A stretch of DNA of 12,008 bases from a virus. Taxonomy: Duplodnaviria; Heunggongvirae; Uroviricota; Caudoviricetes. Positions 1 through 9,011 of the stretch are shown here, in pieces. Below the pieces are notes generated by a model. The model was not told the origin of the DNA, did not search any database, and worked only from the letters and a program-made list of their open reading frames with translations. Both the position numbers and the translations under genes were made by a program. The stretch lies in IMG/VR virus record IMGVR_UViG_643348545_000014, one strand, 5' to 3'. Position 1 is the stretch's first letter; each line of letters begins with the position of its first letter.

Positions 1-1242
1 ATGGCGAGAAAAACACACCCATTAACCACAGTGCAGATCAAAGCAGCCAGACCAGCGCAAAAGGAGTACACCCTGCAGGACGGCGGAGGGCTTTTTCTCC
101 TGGTCAAACCGTCTGGATCAAAACTCTGGAGATTTTCCTACTACCGACCATCGGACAAAAAAAGAATATTGCTGAGTTTTGGATCGCTTGAAGATGTTTC
201 CCTGGCTGATGCCAGAAAACGCCGTAGCGAGTACAGGACGTTAATCAGTGCCGGAACTGACCCGCAGGACCACGAGAGGCAAAAAAGAGAGACAGAGGCC
301 CGAAGACAAGGGAACACGTTCGAAAATGTGGCGGCGGCATGGTACCAGGTGAAAATCAGCCAGAATCTGGCCCCCAACACGATTAAAGACATCTGGCGTT
401 CGCTGGATAAATATGTATTCCCGTTCATCGGCAACACGCCAATAGATACCCTCACCGCCCGAAGGTTCGTTGAAGTGCTTACCCCCATCAAGGAGCGCGG
501 CAACCTGGAAACACTCAAGCGGGTTTTACAGCGCGTTAATGAGGTAATGGATTACGCCGCCAACAGTGGGCTGATTGATGCCAATCCGGCTATGAATGTG
601 CGTAAGGCGTTTCCCTCACCTGTAAAAAAACATATGCCAACAATCCGCCCCGAACAGCTGCCGGAGCTTATGCAGGCTTTATCAGTATCGGCAACAGAAC
701 GGCAGACCAGATTACTGATTGAATGGCAGTTACTGACCGTAACCCGTCCCGCCGAAGCGTCATCAACGCGGTGGGATGAAATCAACCTGGACGCGAAGCA
801 ATGGACGATACCTGCCGGACGCATGAAGATGCGCAGGGATCACGTTATCCCGCTTTCCGGTCAGGCTATGGCGGTGCTGGAGGCCATGAAACCAATCAGC
901 CACCACCGCAATTACGTTTTCCCAAGTCTGAAAGACCCACAGCAGCCGATGAACAGCCAGACAGCTAACGCAGCATTGCGGCGTATGGGATTCGCTGGCG
1001 TGCTGGTGTCTCATGGATTACGCGCCATATTCAGCACAGCAGCGAACGAGGAAGGATTCGAGCCGGACGTAATAGAGGCGGCACTTGCCCACGTCGACAC
1101 CAACGAAGTTAGACGGGCATACAACCGGAGCAACTACATAGAAAAACGCATCGTGCTGATGCGCTGGTGGGGCGAATTTGTCGAGGCTGCGGCGACGGGC
1201 GTAACCCTCGCCAGTGGTAAAAGGGGTATCCGAGCCGTGTAG
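1..1242 (+). CDS. int: Site-specific tyrosine integrase, P4-like family
   Basis: 413-aa ORF. N-terminus MARKTHPLT..IKAA.P...Y.L.DG.GL.L.V.PSGSK.WRF.Y and C-terminal HGLRAIFST ... LAH...NEVRRAYNRSNY...MRWW match the P4-integrase family layout, with the catalytic Tyr in the RRAYNRSNY region (recalled family features). Confidence 0.9.
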   Translation: MARKTHPLTTVQIKAARPAQKEYTLQDGGGLFLLVKPSGSKLWRFSYYRPSDKKRILLSFGSLEDVSLADARKRRSEYRTLISAGTDPQDHERQKRETEARRQGNTFENVAAAWYQVKISQNLAPNTIKDIWRSLDKYVFPFIGNTPIDTLTARRFVEVLTPIKERGNLETLKRVLQRVNEVMDYAANSGLIDANPAMNVRKAFPSPVKKHMPTIRPEQLPELMQALSVSATERQTRLLIEWQLLTVTRPAEASSTRWDEINLDAKQWTIPAGRMKMRRDHVIPLSGQAMAVLEAMKPISHHRNYVFPSLKDPQQPMNSQTANAALRRMGFAGVLVSHGLRAIFSTAANEEGFEPDVIEAALAHVDTNEVRRAYNRSNYIEKRIVLMRWWGEFVEAAATGVTLASGKRGIRAV

Positions 1243-1319
1243 CTGTACAGAAAACCAGTAAAAACTACGAAAACCATGTAAAACCGTCGTATAATTGCAT
1301 CAAATTTAACGACAAGGCC

Positions 1320-1571
1320 GTGAAACATGAAACCGTTAAGATGCAAAAAAATATCAGATGCAATTGCGACGGGCTGCAACTGGCCCTGATGGTTCAGCAT
1401 GAATTTTGGTCAACCTACGATCCGGAGGACAGAACGACGGCCCCATCAAAAAAACAGGTAGTAGATTTTCTGGTATCCCGTGGCGCTTCCAGAAATCTGG
1501 CGGTAAGTATTGATAAGGTCGTACGTCCGGCATCTATGAAGATCGGAGGCAGGCCCAAAAAATGGCGGTAA
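1320..1571 (+). CDS. Hypothetical small protein (83 aa from a GTG start; alternative ATG at 1341)
   Basis: ORF followed by a clean intrinsic terminator, but the ribosome-binding site is weak and no family was recognised. Confidence 0.25.
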   Translation: MKHETVKMQKNIRCNCDGLQLALMVQHEFWSTYDPEDRTTAPSKKQVVDFLVSRGASRNLAVSIDKVVRPASMKIGGRPKKWR

Positions 1572-1580
1572 CAATCCTGG

Positions 1581-1606
1581 AAGCGGCAGAAATGCCGCTT
1601 TTTTTA
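1581..1606 (+). terminator. Rho-independent terminator
   Basis: 8-bp stem AAGCGGCA / TGCCGCTT with GAAA loop, followed by a T-run of 7-8. Confidence 0.6.
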
Positions 1607-1738
1607 TAATTCCATTTCAAATCATCAATATAAAAAACGGTGTATACCGTTTAAAAACGGTGGGAACTGTTTTTACCCATATCCGATGATTTACCGTATT
1701 TGTCACCGGAATACACCGGATTCACAAGGTAAATCACG

Positions 1739-1945
1739 ATGGAAGCAATCAGAAAAATTATCTTTCGCCAGGAAGTAAAAAAAATTATCCACATCAAGGC
1801 AGACAGCACGCTGCAAAGCATGATCAACGCCGGAGAATTTCCGCAGGGTTTTCGCGTTGGTTTACGCCGTCGCGGATGGTATGAGGATGATGTGTTGGCC
1901 TGGCAGAAAGAACGCGAACAGGAAGCACGCGGAACGGCTGCTTAA
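1739..1945 (+). CDS. alpA: AlpA-family transcriptional regulator / excisionase-like HTH protein
   Basis: 68-aa protein with the pattern STLQSMINAGEFPQGFRVGLRRRGWYEDDVLAW, typical of the prophage AlpA family (TIY..I..G.FP.P..LG.R.VGW.E.EV..W). Its position directly downstream of int is canonical. Confidence 0.75.
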   Translation: MEAIRKIIFRQEVKKIIHIKADSTLQSMINAGEFPQGFRVGLRRRGWYEDDVLAWQKEREQEARGTAA

Positions 1946-2093
1946 CGGGTATCACAGATATGACAAACACGAAAAAAGCGGCCCCGATATGGAGCCGCCT
2001 TTCTGAACAATTAACCCGCTGCGCCTTATGTGTATATGATCCCAAACATAAGCACGGGGATGATAGCCGCTATCAGGCTGGTGGGCAATGCAA

Positions 2094-2282
2094 TCAGTCT
2101 GGTTCAGTTCGTTGCCATACCTGCAATGAGCGCGTTTCCCTGTACTCTTTAAGGAATTGCTCAAGGGCAAAAGCACATGGCGCGAATCTTTCTGATTCAT
2201 GCTCTATCTTTCTGCGCCGTCTTTTCCGTGCCGGTGATAATGTTTTGGTCAATTCTTTATCGGTCATTGTGTTGTCCTGCAT
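2094..2282 (-). CDS. Hypothetical small basic protein (57-62 aa, KRRRRK motif), downstream of the RHH gene on the minus strand
   Basis: ORF with ATG start; the internal ATG (MTDKEL...) has an AGGA-like RBS. No family recognised. Confidence 0.3.
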   Translation of the reverse strand: MQDNTMTDKELTKTLSPARKRRRRKIEHESERFAPCAFALEQFLKEYRETRSLQVWQRTEPD

Positions 2283-2324
2283 AGCAATGCGCCGTAATAC
2301 CTCACACCACGGCGCTGATAGTTT

Positions 2325-2516
2325 TTATCCTTTGGGTTCTATACCGCGCCGCTTTAGTTCAGTACGCCCCAACTCTTTAAGCCAGTTGGCTAGGCTTATG
2401 CCGTCGCTCTGTGCTTCTTTATCGAATTGCTCTTTTAGCTCTGGAGAAATTCGCATTCTGAATTGTGGGGATTGCCCGTCCCCTTTAGGGCTTTTATCGC
2501 GTTTGATTGTTGACAA
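2325..2516 (-). CDS. Ribbon-helix-helix (Arc/CopG-like) DNA-binding protein, candidate island repressor
   Basis: The segment FRMRISPELKEQFDKEAQSDGISLANWLKELGRTEL fits a beta-strand plus two-helix RHH pattern. A TTG start has an AGGTG RBS 5 nt upstream; an internal ATG gives a 44-aa alternative. The gene is divergent from the rightward replication operon. Confidence 0.5.
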   Translation of the reverse strand: MSTIKRDKSPKGDGQSPQFRMRISPELKEQFDKEAQSDGISLANWLKELGRTELKRRGIEPKG

Positions 2517-2561
2517 GTGGTCACCTATTGAATTAGCCTTTCTATTGTTAGGTGGTCACCT
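2510..2561 (+). promoter_or_regulatory. Candidate rightward promoter (TTGACA-18 bp-TAGCCT) with two GTGGTCACCT operator-like repeats 35 bp apart
   Basis: TTGACA at 2510-2515. Identical 10-mers GTGGTCACCT at 2517-2526 and 2552-2561, each containing the palindrome GGTCACC, placed in the spacer and just downstream of the predicted start site. Confidence 0.45.
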
Positions 2562-2650
2562 TAACACAAGAGCACTTAAAAAAGCAAAGCCCCGCAAGTG
2601 TCATTACCACTCGCAGGGCTTCTAACCAACAACGTAAACTAGGAGCCGTT

Positions 2651-3208
2651 ATGGTTGCCGTAAATCATATACCACACCTTGTACACACACAAACGGCCTT
2701 TGTGTGGCGTTTTCTGGCCCTGAATATCGGAGAAAAAAACCGCTTGATCGCCACCAGCAAAAATGGCTATGATTCCCGCGCACCTCATAAAACGGGTGTC
2801 GGGATTAGCCTCCTGAAAACAACTGAAGCGCACAGCACGCGCCCCGCGTGTTTTTTTGTGCCGCATAGTCACACCTTATCAATGGTGGGCTGTACGGGGG
2901 CGGAGCAATCCGCGCCGGTTTCTTCAGTGTCCGGTAAGGCTAACCCTGTACAGTCCGCCACCAGCGAAATTAGCCTTTTGCGTGGCGGTTATCTTAACCA
3001 CACTGAGGAGGCTGCCAACATGGCTACTATCCCTACCCTTGTACATTCTCAAACCGCATTTATCTGGCGCTTTATCATCTTTGGCGCGTCAGAATCTCAA
3101 ATCATCCACGTAACCGCCTGGACGGAACGCGAAGCGCGTAGCCGTTGCCCGTCCGGTTGTATTGCGGTATTCGCCGCCCGTATTCGTCAGGGGGTGTGCC
3201 ATGCCTGA
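2651..3208 (+). CDS. Hypothetical protein with internal tandem duplication (shared motif LVH[TS]QTAF[VI]WRF); may be two genes (2651.. and 3020..3208)
   Basis: ATG 2651 has an AGGAG RBS 5 nt upstream; in-frame ATG 3020 has a GAGGAGG RBS 8 nt upstream. The two halves are paralogous at the protein level with diverged nucleotides, which argues for coding selection. Confidence 0.45.
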   Translation: MVAVNHIPHLVHTQTAFVWRFLALNIGEKNRLIATSKNGYDSRAPHKTGVGISLLKTTEAHSTRPACFFVPHSHTLSMVGCTGAEQSAPVSSVSGKANPVQSATSEISLLRGGYLNHTEEAANMATIPTLVHSQTAFIWRFIIFGASESQIIHVTAWTEREARSRCPSGCIAVFAARIRQGVCHA

Positions 3209-3521
3209 TATGTCAAATTACCAGTACCTGATTAATCCGCATTTTAACTGTGAGCATGATATTGCTAAAAAAGTTTATTCCGCTGCGGATGGGGCTACTG
3301 ACAATATATCAATGGGTGTTGCGTCAATTGGTAGCCTGATGTGGCATGCGTCAGAAAATGAGGACTATGACGAAAAGGCCATGCGCATTGATATGGGTAA
3401 TATCGGTTTGTTACTGGCAATGCTTGGGCAGTTTGATATTTCGTTACGGTGCACCATTGAAAATGCCACAGATGCATTAAATGCCATAAAGAAAGCGAAT
3501 ACTGATTCAAATCGGGGATAA
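3201..3521 (+). CDS. Hypothetical acidic protein (106 aa)
   Basis: ATG overlaps the upstream stop (ATGCCTGA), with a GGGGG RBS. No family recognised. Confidence 0.5.
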   Translation: MPDMSNYQYLINPHFNCEHDIAKKVYSAADGATDNISMGVASIGSLMWHASENEDYDEKAMRIDMGNIGLLLAMLGQFDISLRCTIENATDALNAIKKANTDSNRG

Positions 3522-3527
3522 ATAATC

Positions 3528-3827
3528 ATGAGAACATATTTATCTGGCTTGACTGCCAGCGGTTATGCACACCCCAAAATTATCCCCGGCGCTATTTATC
3601 TGGATAAGAACGGTAACAGAGTAACGGTAAAAGAACTGATGTTTGACCGTGTTTATTTTATCCGTGATGGATATTCATTTCTTAGTTCGCTGAACGTGGA
3701 GATCTTTATTTGCAGATTCCGGCGGGAAATCCCGACTTCCAGAAATAACCATGTGTCACGTGTGGATGTGGATAAAAAACTACAGGAACTGAAAAACATG
3801 ATTGCCGCGTGGAGAGAGCAGAAATGA
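3528..3827 (+). CDS. Hypothetical protein (99 aa)
   Basis: GGGGA RBS 9 nt upstream; its stop overlaps the primase ATG (ATGA), indicating translational coupling. Confidence 0.5.
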   Translation: MRTYLSGLTASGYAHPKIIPGAIYLDKNGNRVTVKELMFDRVYFIRDGYSFLSSLNVEIFICRFRREIPTSRNNHVSRVDVDKKLQELKNMIAAWREQK

Positions 3828-5965
3828 AAAAAGCGCCAAATTTAAAACACCAGCCGCGTGACAAAATGACGGAAGTCATCATTTTTGCGGGTAGTGATGC
3901 CTGGGCACATGCGAAACAGTGGCAGGAACAGGACGGGCGACTGGCTGGCGATAACGTGCCTCCTGTCTGGCTTGGAGAGCAACAACTTGCCGAACTGGAT
4001 AAGCTGCAAATTGTGCCGGAAGGCCGAAAATCAGTACGCATATTCAGGGCCGGACATCTTGAGCCAGTAATGATCAAGGCGATTGGTCAGAAGCTGGCGG
4101 CGGCAGGCGTACAGGATGCAAATTTTTACCCTGATGGAATGCACGGTCAGGAGGTGGAGAACTGGCGCGAATATCTGGCCCGTGAGCGGCAGAATCTTTC
4201 TGATGGTCTGGTTATTGAGTTTCCGGTAAAGAAAAAAGATACCGGAAGCCATAGCGATGACGAATTAAAGCCACGCGTTGAAAGTCGCGCCGATGGTGTT
4301 TTCTGGGTAACGCCCAAAGTGGATAAGCAGTCAGGCGAAATTATCCGGCCTGAGACGTGGTTATGTTCTCCGCTTGAACTACTGGGAACGGGGACGATCG
4401 GTAAAGAGCATTACCGCGTCATGCGCTGGAAAAAATTAGCAAATCATGAAGTCATCACAATGGCGATCCCGTGTGGTGGCATTGGCGACCGTGACGGCTG
4501 GCGGTTGCTTAAAGATCACGGGCTGAACGTGACAACAAACGGCAAATACAGGGCTATCCTGGCTGACTGGATGCAGTTAAGCGGAAGCCATGAGGAATGG
4601 CAGTTAAGCACAACAACGGGCTGGCATTTTGACGCGTACATCATGCCGGACGGTTCAATCATTGGTGATTCTGAAAAACCGATCCTGTTTACCGGAAAAA
4701 GTGCCGCTATTAATGGCTATTCGGTTGCGGGTACGGCGGAGGGCTGGCGCGACAGCGTGGCGCGGCTGGCTGGTGGCAATCCGTCCATGATGCTGGGTAT
4801 TGCCACGTCACTGGCAGCACCGTTGATTGGCCTTGTTGGTGCTGACGGCTTCGGGGTACATCTTTTCGAACAGTCATCGGCAGGGAAAACCACCACGCAG
4901 AACATCGCATCAAGTTTATGGGGAGAGCCAGACTCACAACGGCTGACCTGGTACGGCACAGCGTTAGGTATCGCTAACGAGGCAGAGTCGCACAACGACG
5001 GGCTGTTACCCTTGGATGAAATAGGCCAGGCCGGAAACGCGCGGGAGGTGTCCACGTCAGCCTATACGTTGTTTAACGGTTCCGGGAAATTACAGGGGGC
5101 GAAGGACGGCGGCAACCGGGAGATAAAACACTGGCGCACGGTGGCAATCAGCACCGGAGAAATGGACGTTGAGACATTCCTCAAAACGGAGGGGATAAAA
5201 GTCAAAGCGGGGCAGCTTGTCCGCCTGCTTAACGTTCCGATGGAAAAAGCCACGCACTTTCACGAATACAGCACCGGAAAGGCGCACGCAGACGCGTTAA
5301 AGGATGCCTGGACAGAAAATCACGGGGCAGCGGGTCGTGAGTGGGTTAAATGGCTGGCAGGCCACCAGCAGGAGGCAAAGGATACGGTAAGGGAATGCCG
5401 CGAACGGTGGCGCAACCTGATACCGGAGAGCTACGGCGAGCAGGTCCACCGCGTGGGTGAGCGTTTCGCCATACTGGAGGCCGCGCTTGTGCTTTCCGGT
5501 CATGTAACTGGCTGGGCCGCGCAGGAATGCCGGGACGCAATACAGCATAACTTTAATGCCTGGGTGAAGGAGTTCGGCACGGGTAACAGGGAATTTAAAC
5601 AGATGGTTGAACAGGCTGAGGCGTTTTTGTCGTCGTTCGGGTTCAGTCGATACCTTCCTTACCCAAACAGTGATGAACGTGATTTACCGATTAAAGACCT
5701 TGCCGGATACAGAAAGGGGAGTATCAGAAATGAAGATGATGAGTTCCGTTTTTACACGTTTCCTCATGTGTTTGAGGGGGAGATCGCACAGGGATTTAAC
5801 CCGTCCCACTTTGCCCGCGCGTTGAGTGCTGCAGGAATGCTGGAAGCGGGTAACGATCGCCGTTACAAGAAAAAGGCGCTCGGCAAAATTGGGGGGAAGC
5901 AGCATGTTTTTTACGTACTGATGTTCCAGCCTGAGGCAGAAGATTACCCCCCCTGTGTGAGGTGA
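3824..5965 (+). CDS. Satellite replication protein: primase/replicase with a P-loop NTPase-like segment (Pri-Rep-like)
   Basis: About 713 aa from ATG 3824 (GGAGAG RBS; the ORF track begins at GTG 3809). Contains a P-loop-like SSAGKTT. Large size, position after alpA, and the iteron array immediately downstream all fit a replication initiator. Family assignment is by layout and motif only. Confidence 0.75.
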   Translation: MKKAPNLKHQPRDKMTEVIIFAGSDAWAHAKQWQEQDGRLAGDNVPPVWLGEQQLAELDKLQIVPEGRKSVRIFRAGHLEPVMIKAIGQKLAAAGVQDANFYPDGMHGQEVENWREYLARERQNLSDGLVIEFPVKKKDTGSHSDDELKPRVESRADGVFWVTPKVDKQSGEIIRPETWLCSPLELLGTGTIGKEHYRVMRWKKLANHEVITMAIPCGGIGDRDGWRLLKDHGLNVTTNGKYRAILADWMQLSGSHEEWQLSTTTGWHFDAYIMPDGSIIGDSEKPILFTGKSAAINGYSVAGTAEGWRDSVARLAGGNPSMMLGIATSLAAPLIGLVGADGFGVHLFEQSSAGKTTTQNIASSLWGEPDSQRLTWYGTALGIANEAESHNDGLLPLDEIGQAGNAREVSTSAYTLFNGSGKLQGAKDGGNREIKHWRTVAISTGEMDVETFLKTEGIKVKAGQLVRLLNVPMEKATHFHEYSTGKAHADALKDAWTENHGAAGREWVKWLAGHQQEAKDTVRECRERWRNLIPESYGEQVHRVGERFAILEAALVLSGHVTGWAAQECRDAIQHNFNAWVKEFGTGNREFKQMVEQAEAFLSSFGFSRYLPYPNSDERDLPIKDLAGYRKGSIRNEDDEFRFYTFPHVFEGEIAQGFNPSHFARALSAAGMLEAGNDRRYKKKALGKIGGKQHVFYVLMFQPEAEDYPPCVR

Positions 5966-6563: not shown

Positions 6564-6986
6564 ATGACAGCACAGATAGCGGCTTACGGGCGGCTGGTGG
6601 CTGACCCGCAGTTAAAGACCACCAGCAAGGGTACACAAATGACGATGGCTAGTATGGCGGTCCCCCTTCCGTGCAGCCAGGCAGATGACGGAACGGCGAC
6701 GATGTGGTTATCCGTCCTGGCGTTTGGCAGACAGGCCGACGCACTGGCAAAACACCACAAAGGCGAACTGGTGAGCGTGGCGGGTAACATGCAGGTAAGC
6801 CAGTGGACAGGCCAGAACGGCGAAACGCGGCAGGGCTGGCAGGTTATCGCAGACAGCGTAATCAGTGCGAGAACGGCGCGACCGGGCGGCAAAAAAGGCC
6901 AGCAGGGGCAGGCTACTGACGCACTGAACAGGGCAAAACAACAGGCGGGTAACGATGATCCGTACGGGGATAACATACCGTTTTAA
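6564..6986 (+). CDS. ssb: Single-stranded DNA-binding protein (SSB-like, OB fold)
   Basis: WLSVLAFGRQADALAKHHKGELVSVAGNMQVSQWTGQNGETRQGWQVIADSV aligns with the E. coli SSB core [50 protein letters not shown] (recalled). The C-terminal tail DDPYGDNIPF resembles the SSB DDDIPF tail. Confidence 0.75.
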   Translation: MTAQIAAYGRLVADPQLKTTSKGTQMTMASMAVPLPCSQADDGTATMWLSVLAFGRQADALAKHHKGELVSVAGNMQVSQWTGQNGETRQGWQVIADSVISARTARPGGKKGQQGQATDALNRAKQQAGNDDPYGDNIPF

Positions 6987-7608: not shown

Positions 7609-8663
7609 TGACAGTAAAAGCAATATCACTTAACACTAACCAGCTTTTTGCGTACCTGAATCGCGAGGATATTGCGGAATTTAAATTCAGTCCGCTGTTT
7701 ACCGCGCTGTTTTTCCCGAACGTGGCGACATTCAACACACAGGACATCATGTTAGATAACCTGGATATTGAAGAAGTCACTATGTCGGCGTTTTGTTCGC
7801 CTATGGTGGGTAGCCAGGTTCAGCGCGATAAAGGGTACGAAACAAGCATTATTCGCCCTGGCTACATGAAGCCAAAACACGAAATCGATCCATTAAAAAC
7901 AATAATGCGCATGGCTGGAGAAGATCCAGCACAGCTTAACGACCCTACCTACCGCCGTATGCGCCTGATTACTGGCAACATGCGCCGCCAGATAAACGCC
8001 ATTAAAGCGCGCGTGGAATGGCTGGCGGTAAATGCGGTAACGACCGGAAAAAACATCATTGAGGGCGAAGGCATAGAGCGCTATGAAATCGACTGGAAGA
8101 TACCGGAAAAAAACATCATAGAGCAGGCCGACGGTAAAAAATGGTCAGAGCAGGACAAAGACATACACGACCCAATCTATGACATTGAGCTATACGCAGA
8201 TCAGGCAGGTTGCCCCGCAAACGTCATGATTATGGGCGTTGATGTATGGCGCATGTTACGCAGCTTTAAAAAATTCCGTGAACTGTACGATCTCTCCCGT
8301 GGTTCAGAATCCGCCGCAGAGCTGGCATGTAAAAACCTGGGCGAAGTGGTGAGCTTTAAAGGCTATCTTGGTGATCTGGCCCTTATCGTCTATTCCGGCA
8401 AATACACTGACAGCGACGGCACAGAAAAATATTTCCTTGAGCCTGATTTGCTGGTCCTGGGCAACACCAACAATAAAGGGCTGGTGGCCTATGGTGCGAT
8501 TATGGAACAGGAAGCGGTAAGAACGGGCGCAACGCAAAACATGTTTTACCCGAAAAACTGGATTGAGGACGGCGATCCGGCGATTGAGTACGTGCAGACG
8601 CACAGCGCACCGCAGCCGGTTCCGGCAGATATTCGCAAATTTGTTACCGTCAAAATTGGTTAA
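7608..8663 (+). CDS. Major capsid protein, lambda gpE-like
   Basis: 351 aa. Multiple conserved blocks against lambda gpE (recalled): FKFSPLFTALFF vs FKFDPLFLRLFF; PGYMKPKHEIDP vs PGYVKPKHEVNP; EDPAQLNDPTYRRMR vs EDPQNLADPAYRRRR; GYLGDLALIVYSGKY vs GMYGDVAIVVYSGQY; YPKNWIEDGDPA vs YPKNWVTTGDPA. Confidence 0.9.
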   Translation: MTVKAISLNTNQLFAYLNREDIAEFKFSPLFTALFFPNVATFNTQDIMLDNLDIEEVTMSAFCSPMVGSQVQRDKGYETSIIRPGYMKPKHEIDPLKTIMRMAGEDPAQLNDPTYRRMRLITGNMRRQINAIKARVEWLAVNAVTTGKNIIEGEGIERYEIDWKIPEKNIIEQADGKKWSEQDKDIHDPIYDIELYADQAGCPANVMIMGVDVWRMLRSFKKFRELYDLSRGSESAAELACKNLGEVVSFKGYLGDLALIVYSGKYTDSDGTEKYFLEPDLLVLGNTNNKGLVAYGAIMEQEAVRTGATQNMFYPKNWIEDGDPAIEYVQTHSAPQPVPADIRKFVTVKIG

Positions 8664-8675
8664 CGGGGGGATTCT

Positions 8676-9011
8676 ATGGACACTCCATACATTGAGTTAT
8701 TTGCAGGCAGTCAGCAGGTATCCACGACGCTGGTACATTTTGCCGCTGATGCTGGCGTTATTCAGGAATTTACCCCGCTGATGCTGGCGGACAATGGCGA
8801 GTTTAAGCCGTGGGATGGTCAGGAATCTGGCAAGGCTGTTTATCTGACTTCGTACCCCGTGGACACGTCAAAGCAGAAATCAGCACAGTGTTACAAGACG
8901 GGGATATTTAATATCGCCGCCGTAAACTGGCCTGAGAGCGCCGACACTGACGCGAAAAAATGCGCCGCCTTTGCGGGTTCTGGCGTATCCGTTCAGCCGC
9001 TGGCGCGATAA
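8676..9011 (+). CDS. Head decoration protein, lambda gpD-like
   Basis: 111 aa. Matches to lambda gpD (recalled): TPLMLAD vs TPLMLD, WDG, YKTGIF vs YKSGTF, WPESADTDAKKCAAFAGSGVSV vs [28 protein letters not shown] RBS. Confidence 0.8.
   Translation: MDTPYIELFAGSQQVSTTLVHFAADAGVIQEFTPLMLADNGEFKPWDGQESGKAVYLTSYPVDTSKQKSAQCYKTGIFNIAAVNWPESADTDAKKCAAFAGSGVSVQPLAR

Follow-up and report, generated by a model that had tools for sequence, protein, structure and literature searches.

The window analysed here, the whole 12,008-nucleotide stretch of viral DNA, carries an island with the gene order int, AlpA-like gene, a zone at 2651–3827, primase, SSB and capsid genes. The zone comprises three plus-strand ORFs: ORF1 (2651–3208; ATG start, 185 amino acids, with GTG 2552 as an alternative start), ORF2 (3201–3521; 106 amino acids, a small helical protein in a variable slot) and ORF3 (3528–3827; 99 amino acids, a DUF4222 protein). 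They are followed on the same strand by a DUF927 primase/helicase (3824–5965; Pfam DUF927, 164 bits; phrog_1139, DNA primase). In relatives, PGAP names these genes ash/Icd-like, hypothetical, DUF4222 and primase. The sequence-only reading had described three coupled ORFs with overlapping stop and start codons as an operon feeding into the primase. The ORFs, their order and their coupling hold, and together they form a single tightly coupled operon upstream of the primase, but overlaps occur at only two of the three junctions. ORF1 and ORF2 overlap by 8 nt (ATG 3201, TGA 3206–3208) and ORF3 and the primase share an ATGA (3824–3827), whereas ORF2 and ORF3 are separated by a 6-nt gap.

The operon is flanked by a divergent RHH (Arc/HicB-like) regulator gene on the minus strand (2325–2516), whose product matches the Arc-like repressor family phrog_228 (E 4.9e-7) and Pfam HicB (E 4.8e-4; 20.4 bits, slightly under the 21-bit cutoff). 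Repeat analysis of the divergent control region revealed an operator-like near-palindrome in two direct copies, AAGTGGTCACCT and AGGTGGTCACCT (2510–2561), which, judging from their sequence, may act as operators. At the equivalent position, SJ2D and 95-3192 have a different repeated palindrome, ATGGTAATTACC. The interval 2510–2561 is also the presumed site of an upstream P_LL-like promoter, for which a consensus scan of the window gave no match.

ORF1 is a long eta-like frame (2651–3208, plus strand) that crosses two RNA genes and ends as a nested Icd/Kil-family ORF (3020–3208, plus strand; 62 amino acids). The Icd-like part (3020–3205) scores 58.3 bits against NCBIfam NF033153 (Icd-like; cutoff 25), compared with 76.1 bits for P4 Kil; BLASTP gave no direct alignment between the two proteins, their link running solely through this profile. 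PGAP calls the corresponding gene in relatives 'host cell division inhibitor Icd-like protein', and by analogy the peptide may inhibit cell division or have a killing activity. Each of the two starts is preceded by a strong Shine–Dalgarno sequence (SD), as had been noted from the sequence: AGGAG at 2641–2645, 5 nt ahead of ATG 2651 (SD1), and GAGGAGG at 3005–3011, 8 nt ahead of ATG 3020 (SD2). The position of the upstream ATG and its SD is conserved in four relatives. As a whole, ORF1 gives a full-length match to phrog_29966 (5e-114), and its amino acids 40–133 (nt 2768–3049) match Pfam Phage_ASH (PF10554) at 43.9 bits (gathering 26). The earlier reading recognised none of these proteins, yet ORF1 (Phage_ASH/Icd-like) and ORF3 (DUF4222) belong to named families.

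The two RNA genes occupy the middle third of the long frame. An isrK/P4 seqA-type leader lies at 2780–2856 (plus strand; Rfam RF01394, 61.8 bits, gathering 50, E 1.6e-11), followed by a C4/P4 CI-type antisense immunity RNA at 2878–2965 (plus strand; Rfam RF01695, 75.4 bits, gathering 45, E 1.2e-13), which spans the full-length model (1–87). The P4 CI RNA scores 74.9 bits against the same model, and Rfam models place an isrK/C4 pair in the P4 eta ORF likewise; the narrower model RF03163 (c4-a1b1) had no match in the window at E<=1. A terminator scan located a t1-like intrinsic terminator within the isrK element, formed by a hairpin at 2834–2852 and a subsequent T7. P4 itself has the terminators t1, t4 and timm. 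Because the Phage_ASH match (2768–3049) roughly coincides with isrK, C4 and their targets, this 'family' largely tracks RNA-level conservation here; PGAP flags the ash part in relatives as an incomplete pseudogene. Inside the long ORF, a consensus scan found a candidate sigma-70-like promoter (TTGATC-18-TATGAT; 2744–2773, plus strand), of which TTG.TC and GCTATGATT do not vary among four relatives while the rest of the upstream sequence diverges. If active, it would place a transcription start near 2780, at the 5′ end of the isrK element.

The C4 RNA carries two specificity segments: a′, the hairpin-2 loop region (2917–2930; loop proper TTCTTCAGTGT, 2920–2930), and b′, the linker AGGCTAA (2937–2943). 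Targets lie on both sides, all on the plus strand. Upstream, b1 (GGGATTAGCCT, 2801–2811) and a1 (AACTGAAG, 2821–2828) are contained in the isrK element; downstream are the seqC-type targets b2 (TTAGCCT, 2970–2976) and a2 (ACACTGAGGAGGCT, 3000–3013), the latter covering the SD of the Icd-like start. The a′ segment pairs with the a2/SD2 region over 14 contiguous base pairs (dG −20.1), and b′ pairs with b1 (dG −15.6). C4 pairing with SD1 reaches a dG of −10.0, weaker than the best of the shuffled background (−14.4±1.8). In the window alone, the a′/a2 duplex energy is about 3 SD better than shuffles, with one shuffle better still; since this margin is modest, the case rests on covariation across the family.

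To gather C4 loci, we combined a degenerate C4 pattern scan of IMG/VR with a search across E. coli genomes; a scan of genome contigs with ORF1 as query had returned one locus only. Matches occur in 3,294 E. coli genomes, and strain DETEC-S792 is 99.9% identical to the window over 2500–3210. The 125 pattern matches contained 71 distinct cores. For 114 loci, the loop and linker of each locus were compared with its own flanking targets and with permuted targets. Matching to the own targets was higher in each site class: 8.50 versus 4.98±0.11 for a-downstream, 7.25 versus 5.50 for a-upstream, 6.10 versus 4.60 for b-downstream and 5.93 versus 4.75 for b-upstream, an excess of more than 15 SD throughout. 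Both downstream targets, a2 and b2, covary with loop and linker and keep a fixed distance from the core, with offsets after it of 50–54 nt for a2 (105 of the 114 loci) and 20–24 nt for b2 (100 of 114). Individual islands illustrate the compensatory changes: SJ2D combines the b′ sequence ACGCCAA with TTGGCGT at both b1 and b2, and BCE049 combines the a′ sequence TTCTTCGTTAA with TTAACGAAGAG at a2 and TTAACGAAG at a1. We also considered a third target, 'b0', an 11-mer (AATTAGCCTTT) at 2531–2541 that is identical to 2968–2978, and rejected it: it fails to covary in SJ2D and also occurs in TW14588, which lacks C4.

The arrangement closely resembles the immunity region of P4, which has the order P_LL/eta, P_LE, seqA, cI (the CI RNA), seqC and kil, followed by epsilon, orf151, cnr and alpha. 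In both, a long ORF (eta, 8812..8168, in P4) begins upstream of an internal promoter, crosses an isrK/seqA-type element and a C4/CI RNA, and ends in an Icd-family ORF of 62–65 amino acids whose stop is overlapped for 8 nt by the next gene; in both, the primase ends the operon. The candidate promoter at 2744–2773 would be the analogue of P_LE. Several features set the two regions apart. The isrK-to-C4 spacing is 22 nt in the window and ~108 nt in P4, and the specificity sequences of loop and linker differ. Upstream, the window has a divergent RHH regulator, whereas P4 has a co-directional Vis/AlpA gene directly ahead of eta. The long ORF in the window begins with a well-preserved second Icd-like N-terminus, whereas similarity between the upstream part of P4 eta and the kil N-terminus is not significant (score 30, z 1.4). 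Downstream, ORF2 and the DUF4222 gene stand where P4 has epsilon, orf151 and cnr (DUF5375), without sequence similarity, and the primase is of the DUF927 type in contrast to P4 alpha. The gene order also matches the Integration–Bro–Replication–Late layout of the 'Bro zone' in Gram-negative PICI and HE-PICI, with int, AlpA-like gene, zone, primase plus SSB, and capsid in succession; no Bro-family domain was detected in the window ORFs. In its treatment of these zones, which it calls dynamic, a 2023 study reports matches of the C4 and isrK models to relatives of CI and seqA in the Bro zones of GN-PICIs (PMC10111431).

We interpret 2651–3827, with a probability of about 0.85, as the early immunity/replication-control operon of a P4-like or Gram-negative PICI-type satellite, in which the first 'gene' is a composite of the P4 eta/kil type. 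In keeping with an eta-like frame, the phase of Icd stays open through C4 and a further 100 nt in 70 of 94 loci, as against 25 and 3 for the other frames; about a quarter of the C4 loci lack it, however, and part of this openness over conserved RNA could reflect inheritance and not selection. By analogy with work on P4, P1 and Gifsy-1, the switch could operate as follows. A constitutive internal promoter at 2744–2773 would generate a leader transcript from about 2780 that contains, in order, the isrK/seqA-type element with a1, b1 and the t1-like terminator, the C4/CI RNA, b2 and a2. The processed C4 RNA would then use its hairpin loop (a′) and its linker (b′) to pair with the targets. Pairing at a2 would cover the SD of the Icd/Kil-like gene, blocking its translation, causing premature termination, or both. 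As a consequence of this block or termination, together with translational coupling or close spacing of the genes, ORF2, the DUF4222 gene and the primase would stay off and the island would remain quiescent. Transcripts from an upstream promoter beside the divergent RHH regulator would carry a second start, SD1/ATG 2651, with which C4 is predicted to pair only weakly. Ribosomes starting there would translate across the RNA genes and on into the Icd sequence, as in P4 eta, and this read-through translation is expected to suppress termination and switch replication on. For P4, the one system in which this is known, the 2023 study summarises how translating the long ORF on transcripts of a regulated upstream promoter suppresses the termination that depends on immunity (PMC10111431).

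It is possible, though we rate it well below an even chance, that the same parts follow a different logic and that P4-type antisense-induced termination is not the main mode. The isrK element could act in trans and open the downstream RBS, as in Gifsy-1, or C4 could work purely through a block of Icd translation, as in P1 immI, with Rho polarity as a secondary effect. Gifsy-1 contains isrK, a processed C4-like RNA region (STnc1160/'orf45') and a coupled downstream gene, and IsrK has been described as a structural homologue of P4 seqA, CI pairing with both seqA and seqC (PMC4825925). The window resembles the Gifsy-1 isrK–orf45–anrP region in its isrK match with a terminator, the subsequent C4-like RNA and the coupled downstream gene, and an end at 2857 would give an sRNA of ~77 nt. 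Because a1 and b1 in isrK are complementary to C4, cis structures like 'structure A' of Gifsy-1 would also be conceivable (PMC4825925). Stx phages match at 73%, one record being annotated with both 'C4 antisense RNA' and 'isrK'. The downstream gene of Gifsy-1, however, is an antirepressor that drives an antiterminator, with a short IsrK shown as trans-activator, and neither an Icd-like ORF nor replication genes follow it. The immI region of P1 and P7 (c4 antisense RNA, icd, ant) shares the C4 RNA family with targets on both sides of the RNA, and its downstream target likewise covers the RBS of an Icd-family ORF with translational coupling to what comes next; the position of a2 over the SD in the window is thus as in P1. 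P1-like phages match the window at 2780–3073 and carry the annotation 'Icd protein' in this region. Unlike P1/P7, in which an antirepressor is controlled, the window has a P4-like satellite replication operon as its downstream cargo, and it has an upstream eta-like frame, a hallmark of P4. Sequence alone separates none of these modes, which are not mutually exclusive.

Within the P4-like operon, the gene following icd differs in character from its neighbors. Among eight related islands, the Icd-like and DUF4222 genes are found in all eight, whereas the slot between them holds at least six unrelated families, all of them PHROG families of unknown function, and ORF2 occurs in three. ORF2 matches phrog_15327, a family of unknown function. 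Searches against Pfam, NCBIfam, PADLOC and PDB (profile versus PDB sequences) gave no match for it. With 18 representatives in a set of 1.84e9 proteins, the ORF2 family is very small and narrow, and the predicted structure is a generic helical hairpin (pLDDT 64.6). ORF2 sits in an exchangeable slot, in the position of P4 epsilon/orf151. Members of its family could be epsilon-like factors that manipulate the helper and are exchanged at a conserved coupling junction, where the start codon precedes the icd stop by 8 nt.

The position between regulator and replication genes had been proposed as a site of cargo, to be examined by comparing it across related islands. Turnover of this kind is confined to the ORF2 slot; the Icd-like and DUF4222 genes, being present in all eight islands, are core and not cargo, and such invariance is what the earlier reading had named as refuting its proposal. 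A role of the operon, or of ORF2 at least, as accessory cargo that interferes with helpers or defends against phages is unlikely in our view. The turnover, the small and narrow ORF2 family, and the fact that P4 has its helper-derepression gene epsilon in precisely this place, also overlapping kil by 8 nt, would fit such a role. Against it, no PADLOC-DB family matched ORF1, the Icd-like ORF, ORF2 or ORF3 at E<=0.1, the slot genes all belong to PHROG families of unknown function, and BLASTP of ORF2 gave no alignment to P4 epsilon at E<=100 and none to P4 orf151. Distant ORF2 homologues in L021 and L094 occur alongside the same primase type, which fits a replication accessory role equally well.

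ORF3 scores 61.4 bits against Pfam DUF4222 (PF13973; cutoff 27), and PGAP uses the DUF4222 name in relatives. Its gene overlaps the replicase start in all eight islands. The first ~122–140 residues of the primase form an N-terminal domain that recurs in related islands in replicases of the RepA-helicase type and of the 'DNA primase family', with identities of 52–77% among islands and 45–95% to the window. DUF4222 is a core partner of the replicase, translationally coupled to an N-domain that several replicase types have in common. BLASTP against P4 Cnr (ORF106, DUF5375) indicated no homology (E 7.7), the position next to the primase being all that they have in common, and a structure search with the DUF4222 model (pLDDT 57.8) gave non-significant matches to small beta-barrels (SH3, Tudor, Sm; best E 0.19).

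Could ORF1 nevertheless be a functional 185-amino-acid 'Ash'/Bro-network protein with two Icd-like halves, selected for its amino acids, with the RNA matches secondary? We find this improbable. The Phage_ASH score above cutoff and the full-length phrog_29966 match would agree with it, as would the report that P4 Eta is translated from late-promoter transcripts (PMC10111431). Likewise, the frame in phase with Icd is open in 70 of 94 loci, and the two repeat copies described below show synonymous, protein-type divergence. The Ash match, however, coincides with two covariance-model RNA matches well above their gathering thresholds, the variation is compensatory between RNA sites and apparently not codon-patterned, and the ash part is an incomplete pseudogene by PGAP. 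In a codon-phase entropy comparison of protein- and RNA-like variation across the Ash/C4 region, even the Icd control was only weakly periodic at this divergence. Finally, a 65-amino-acid Icd-like gene alone suffices in related islands, and the upstream Icd-like half, found in only 3–4 of the 94 loci, has decayed in L089 and BCE049.

The sequence-only reading had seen two paralogous halves in ORF1. The N-termini are indeed duplicated: a direct repeat of 46 nt (2668–2713 and 3028–3073) is 74% identical at a spacing of exactly 360 nt, the protein-level repeat has a Smith–Waterman score of 78, about 16 SD above shuffles, and six of the differences between the copies are synonymous, at 12 conserved residues, so that the repeat reflects two protein-coding Icd-like N-termini. 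ORF1 is nevertheless no simple duplicated protein, as isrK and C4 take up its middle third. That the LVH[TS]QTAF[VI]WRF repeat is instead a duplicated antisense target (a1b1/a2b2) can be dismissed: although C4 targets are duplicated around the RNA in P1 and P4 and the second motif copy directly follows a2/b2, the real targets lie at 2801–2828 and 2970–3013, the copies differ chiefly at synonymous sites, the first copy is also found, identical, in islands without any C4, and C4 pairing is weak near SD1.

Alignment with RNA-less islands clarifies the duplication. Related O157-type islands have one intact Icd-like gene of 65 amino acids, standing alone, and lack an in-frame 360-bp segment (2733–3092, plus strand; absent from TW14588 and 95-3192). 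No C4 or isrK was found at gathering score in L004–L006. The first Icd-like N-terminal copy (MVAVNHIPHLVHTQTAFVWRFLALNIGE; 2651–2732, plus strand) is identical in nucleotides to the 5′ part of the single Icd-like gene, except that TW14588 differs at a single synonymous position and that the final ~15 nt ahead of the junction are not the same. Within the 360-bp segment lie the P_LE-like promoter, both RNA genes (isrK and C4), the targets a2 and b2, SD2 and a second Icd N-terminus, and homology of BCE049 to the window starts at 2734. The first N-terminus would be the 5′ icd end of the RNA-less type, fused in frame to the RNA-immunity segment; the duplication is lineage-specific. Two types of upstream control region, each with and without the segment, occur in all four combinations among the window, TW14588, SJ2D and 95-3192. 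Tentatively, we suggest that 2733–3092 is a portable in-frame RNA-immunity cassette and that recombination in icd toggles satellites between RNA-immune and RNA-less states, the leftover 5′ icd being co-opted to begin an eta-like bypass ORF that is insensitive to immunity. The Bro-zone section of PMC10111431 mentions neither the presence/absence polymorphism of the 360-bp segment nor the duplication of the Icd N-terminus.

We conclude that the internally duplicated 'protein' is very probably a known, largely ordinary P4-style immunity switch, and that ORF2 alone is without recognisable function. The label 'ash family protein', as given by PGAP and Pfam, largely denotes two regulatory RNAs and a nested Icd/Kil gene, and recognising the RNA switch averts misdirected protein work. 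The diversity of loops and linkers with their matched targets provides a ready catalogue of immunity specificities, while the occurrence of islands with and without the RNA cassette in a single family amounts to a natural experiment on RNA- versus protein-based control. Experiments can be directed at two well-defined objects, DUF4222 together with the common replicase N-domain and the exchangeable slot that follows icd. For the satellite itself, the RNA switch would be the on/off control of replication and would explain how the island probably silences its primase.

The window holds a satellite-type island, with an integrase (1-1242), an AlpA-like gene (1739-1945), a divergent ribbon-helix-helix (RHH) gene on the minus strand (2325-2516), a DUF927 primase (3824-5965), SSB (6564-6986) and, 3' of SSB, capsid and decoration genes. 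The three plus-strand ORFs that a sequence-only reading had placed upstream of the primase are confirmed: ORF1 at 2651-3208 (185 aa from its ATG, in a frame open from GTG 2552), ORF2 at 3201-3521 (106 aa) and ORF3, which encodes a DUF4222 protein, at 3528-3827 (99 aa). The overlapping stop and start codons described for them exist at two of the three junctions, ORF1/ORF2 (8 nt) and ORF3/primase (ATGA), because 6 nt part ORF2 from ORF3.

Two RNA genes lie inside ORF1 on the plus strand. An Rfam scan places isrK (RF01394) at 2780-2856 with 61.8 bits (gathering threshold 50) and the C4 antisense RNA (RF01695) at 2878-2965 with 75.4 bits (gathering threshold 45). A putative sigma-70-like promoter, TTGATC-18-TATGAT (2744-2773), is found just 5' of the start of isrK; four relatives with otherwise divergent upstream sequence have both hexamers unchanged. 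At its 3' end, isrK has a hairpin (2834-2852) and then a run of seven T, as in an intrinsic terminator. The NCBIfam match of ORF1, 'host cell division inhibitor Icd-like', is limited to the last 62 codons (3020-3208). The Pfam model 'Ash' (Phage_ASH, PF10554; the 'ash family protein' of PGAP) matches aa 40-133 (nt 2768-3049), coincident with both RNAs and their targets, and the matched span is almost exactly that of these elements. Much of the conservation captured by this family may lie at the RNA level, the frame being merely open.

The hairpin-2 loop of C4 (a', 2917-2930) pairs with 3000-3013 over 14 bp without a break (dG -20.1 kcal/mol), and this downstream target, a2, spans the Shine-Dalgarno (SD) sequence of the Icd-like start. 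The upstream a1 site, AACTGAAG, is located inside isrK at 2821-2828. The C4 linker (b', AGGCTAA, 2937-2943) finds its complement, TTAGCCT, in isrK (2805-2811; duplex -15.6) and again at 2970-2976 (b2). Pairing of C4 with the first SD of ORF1 is weak (-10.0 versus a shuffled-background best of -14.4 ± 1.8). Since the pairing energies in the window by themselves are just moderately better than those of shuffles, covariation was tested over many loci. A degenerate C4 pattern retrieved 120 loci with very diverse loops and linkers from IMG/VR; its 125 pattern matches comprised 71 distinct cores, and the 114 non-identical loci were scored. Pairing with a locus's own flank far exceeded that with permuted flanks at every site class: the a' loop scored 8.50 against 4.98 ± 0.11 downstream and 7.25 against 5.50 ± 0.10 upstream, and the b' linker 6.10 against 4.60 ± 0.09 and 5.93 against 4.75 ± 0.07, respectively. 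The a2 site lies 50-54 nt past the C4 core in 105 of the 114 loci and b2 20-24 nt past it in 100. Close relatives carry compensatory triplets: in SJ2D, b' reads ACGCCAA and both b sites TTGGCGT; in BCE049, a' is TTCTTCGTTAA, a2 is TTAACGAAGAG and a1 is TTAACGAAG. A further copy of the 11-mer AATTAGCCTTT, which covers b2 at 2968-2978, occurs in the upstream control region at 2531-2541; a role as a third target is unlikely, because this copy is kept in the C4-less island of TW14588 and shows no covariation in SJ2D.

Phage P4 (NC_001609) gives Rfam matches to isrK and C4 as in the window, and both RNAs fall inside a 214-aa ORF on the minus strand (8812..8168), the last 65 codons of which match the same Icd-like model as the window ORF (76 bits). 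The 214-aa ORF has been published as eta, with kil forming its 3' portion. The P4 promoter P_LE is internal to eta, and the window promoter at 2744-2773 is comparable. In 94 loci with an ORF start 55-100 nt past the C4 core, the start is an ATG at +73 in 68, and the frame of the downstream ORF is open through the entire C4 gene and 100 nt more in 70 (the other two frames, in 25 and 3); an eta-like read-through frame is therefore typical of the module. The P4 terminators are named t1, t4 and timm. The eta/kil/CI mechanism of P4 is summarised in PMC10111431 and also in PMC4825925.

On the basis of homology with P4, the internal promoter would produce a leader transcript from which C4 would be processed. 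C4 would pair with a1/b1 and a2/b2, increasing termination and/or occluding the Icd ribosome-binding site, and would thereby hold off ORF2, DUF4222 and the primase. Transcripts from an upstream, regulator-controlled promoter would include the ATG at 2651, and translation of the long frame from there across the RNA region would bypass immunity. A purely translational logic of the P1 type, or a Gifsy-1-type logic with a short IsrK as trans-activator, may apply instead, to judge from sequence.

The internal duplication noted in ORF1 holds up: a 46-nt direct repeat (2668-2713 and 3028-3073; 74% identity) has a spacing of exactly 360 nt, with a protein-level local score of 78, about 16 SD over shuffles. 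A good SD does precede each copy, AGGAG (2641-2645) and GAGGAGG (3005-3011). Synonymous codon differences at 6 of the 12 conserved residues of the core motif imply that both copies derive from protein-selected sequences. The upstream Icd-like N-terminus is rare, occurring in 3-4 of the 94 loci (the window, its near-twin DETEC-S792 and SJ2D, with a weak trace in locus L089), and the apparent similarity within P4, of the upstream part of eta to the kil N-terminus, is not significant. Within the sub-lineage, the position of the upstream ATG and SD is conserved, and the Icd motif is intact (window, SJ2D), partial (L089, YIWRFLA) or absent (BCE049).

The O157-type islands of TW14588 and 95-3192 have one intact 65-aa Icd-like gene and neither C4 nor isrK. 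The 5' part of this single gene equals the first window copy, nucleotide-identical save about 15 nt before the junction and one synonymous site (TW14588), and its 3' part agrees with the second copy from 3093 on. The window and SJ2D therefore hold an extra, exactly in-frame 360 bp (2733-3092), which takes in the promoter, the two RNA genes, the targets downstream of C4 and the second start. The junction shares the microhomology AGAA alone, compatible with insertion or deletion. Upstream control regions of the GGTCACC type and the GGTAATTACC type (repeated palindromes) are each found with and without this cassette.

The region that separates the RHH gene from the operon has two operator-like near-palindromes, AAGTGGTCACCT and AGGTGGTCACCT, 35 nt apart (2510-2561). 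SJ2D and 95-3192 carry another repeated palindrome, ATGGTAATTACC, at the equivalent place, which suggests alternative repressor specificities. A strong hairpin of 15 pairs (2586-2622) with a T-run after it on the minus strand thereby resembles a terminator for leftward transcription; it is retained with different sequence (GCCCCG...CGGGGC) in SJ2D and 95-3192, and might protect the RHH gene against antisense transcripts or act as a leader structure. A plus-strand 221-aa ORF (1960-2625), rich in Cys/Ser/Arg, overlaps minus-strand ORFs at 2094-2282 and 2325-2516. PGAP calls it 'hypothetical protein' in DETEC-S792 and TW14588 and 'Icd-like, incomplete' in 95-3192 and SJ2D, and it has no match in PHROG or NCBIfam. 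The opposing ORFs match phrog_228 (Arc-like repressor) and phrog_21027, and are probably the real genes, as PGAP has them in EC12.

Gene content was compared over eight annotated E. coli islands. The Icd-like gene (69-100% identity to the window) and DUF4222 (31-96%) are present in all eight, as expected of core genes and not of cargo; the DUF4222 stop overlaps the replicase ATG in each (ATGA). Gene turnover does occur between these two genes, where each island has 1-3 genes from at least six unrelated families, all PHROG 'unknown function'; ORF2 is present in three islands only. The replicases bear three PGAP names (DUF927, RepA helicase and 'DNA primase family'), corresponding to three different catalytic modules, and share an N-terminal domain of ~122-140 aa (phrog_2850; ...IIFAGSDAWAHAKQWQEQDG...), 52-77% identical among islands and spanning 3824-~4240 in the window (primase residues 1-~140). 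DUF4222 and this domain thus form a conserved unit downstream of which modules swap. In seven of the eight islands, the post-icd gene starts 8 nt ahead of the icd stop (…GCCATGnnTGA/TAA; 3190-3208 in the window), and P4 epsilon likewise starts 8 nt before the kil stop (8168-8175). The genes following icd or kil are mutually unrelated despite this shared arrangement, and the junction looks like a conserved translational coupling and cargo exchange point. The window itself is a mosaic: DETEC-S792 is 99.9% identical over 2500-3210, in a 99.2% match reaching 3562, past which its DUF4222 is just 36% identical and its replicase C-terminal module different; EC12 has a 96% identical DUF4222 and a replicase that differs after the shared N-domain; the TW14588 primase is 94.5% identical.

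A word-indexed search returned close ORF2 homologues from E. coli only, and a set of 1.84 billion proteins yielded 18 representatives of the family. Four further C4-bearing satellites encode distant homologues (E 1e-5 to 7e-12), each time in the interval from the Icd-like gene to the primase. ORF2 has no match in Pfam, NCBIfam, PADLOC or PDB and resembles neither P4 epsilon nor orf151 in sequence; its model is a helical hairpin of modest confidence (pLDDT 64.6). One 324-aa protein (P0057) contains the ORF2 sequence at residues 219-324; by length it would suit a fusion with the 218-aa GTG-start form of ORF1, and such a fusion would point to a frameshift variant or to a miscalled gene where the two ORFs overlap by 8 nt. 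The DUF4222 model is poor (pLDDT 57.8), with a small beta-sheet and a C-terminal helix; the fold search gave nothing at E <= 0.001 (best match, E 0.19), and the protein has no similarity to P4 Cnr at the same position.

Window positions 2500-3210 are matched in 3,294 of 5,426 complete E. coli genomes (median 2 places per genome), so the module is widespread; the full two-copy arrangement (>= 80% coverage) is found in 159 genomes. P1-like and Stx phages carry it as well, and one of these phages has the annotation 'C4 antisense RNA | isrK'. PMC10111431 describes C4 and isrK matches in the 'Bro zones' of Gram-negative PICIs, read via P4 eta, kil and CI; the finding therefore belongs to a known module type. 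Its lineage-specific extras, the duplicated Icd N-terminus and the polymorphic cassette, are minor, and one small gene of the operon, ORF2, is without assigned function. Across the IMG/VR C4 loci (L010-L129), hairpin-2 loops and linkers mix combinatorially, one linker occurring with many loops and vice versa, a pattern that hints at immunity specificities of modular build in P4-like, P1-like and lambdoid elements alike.
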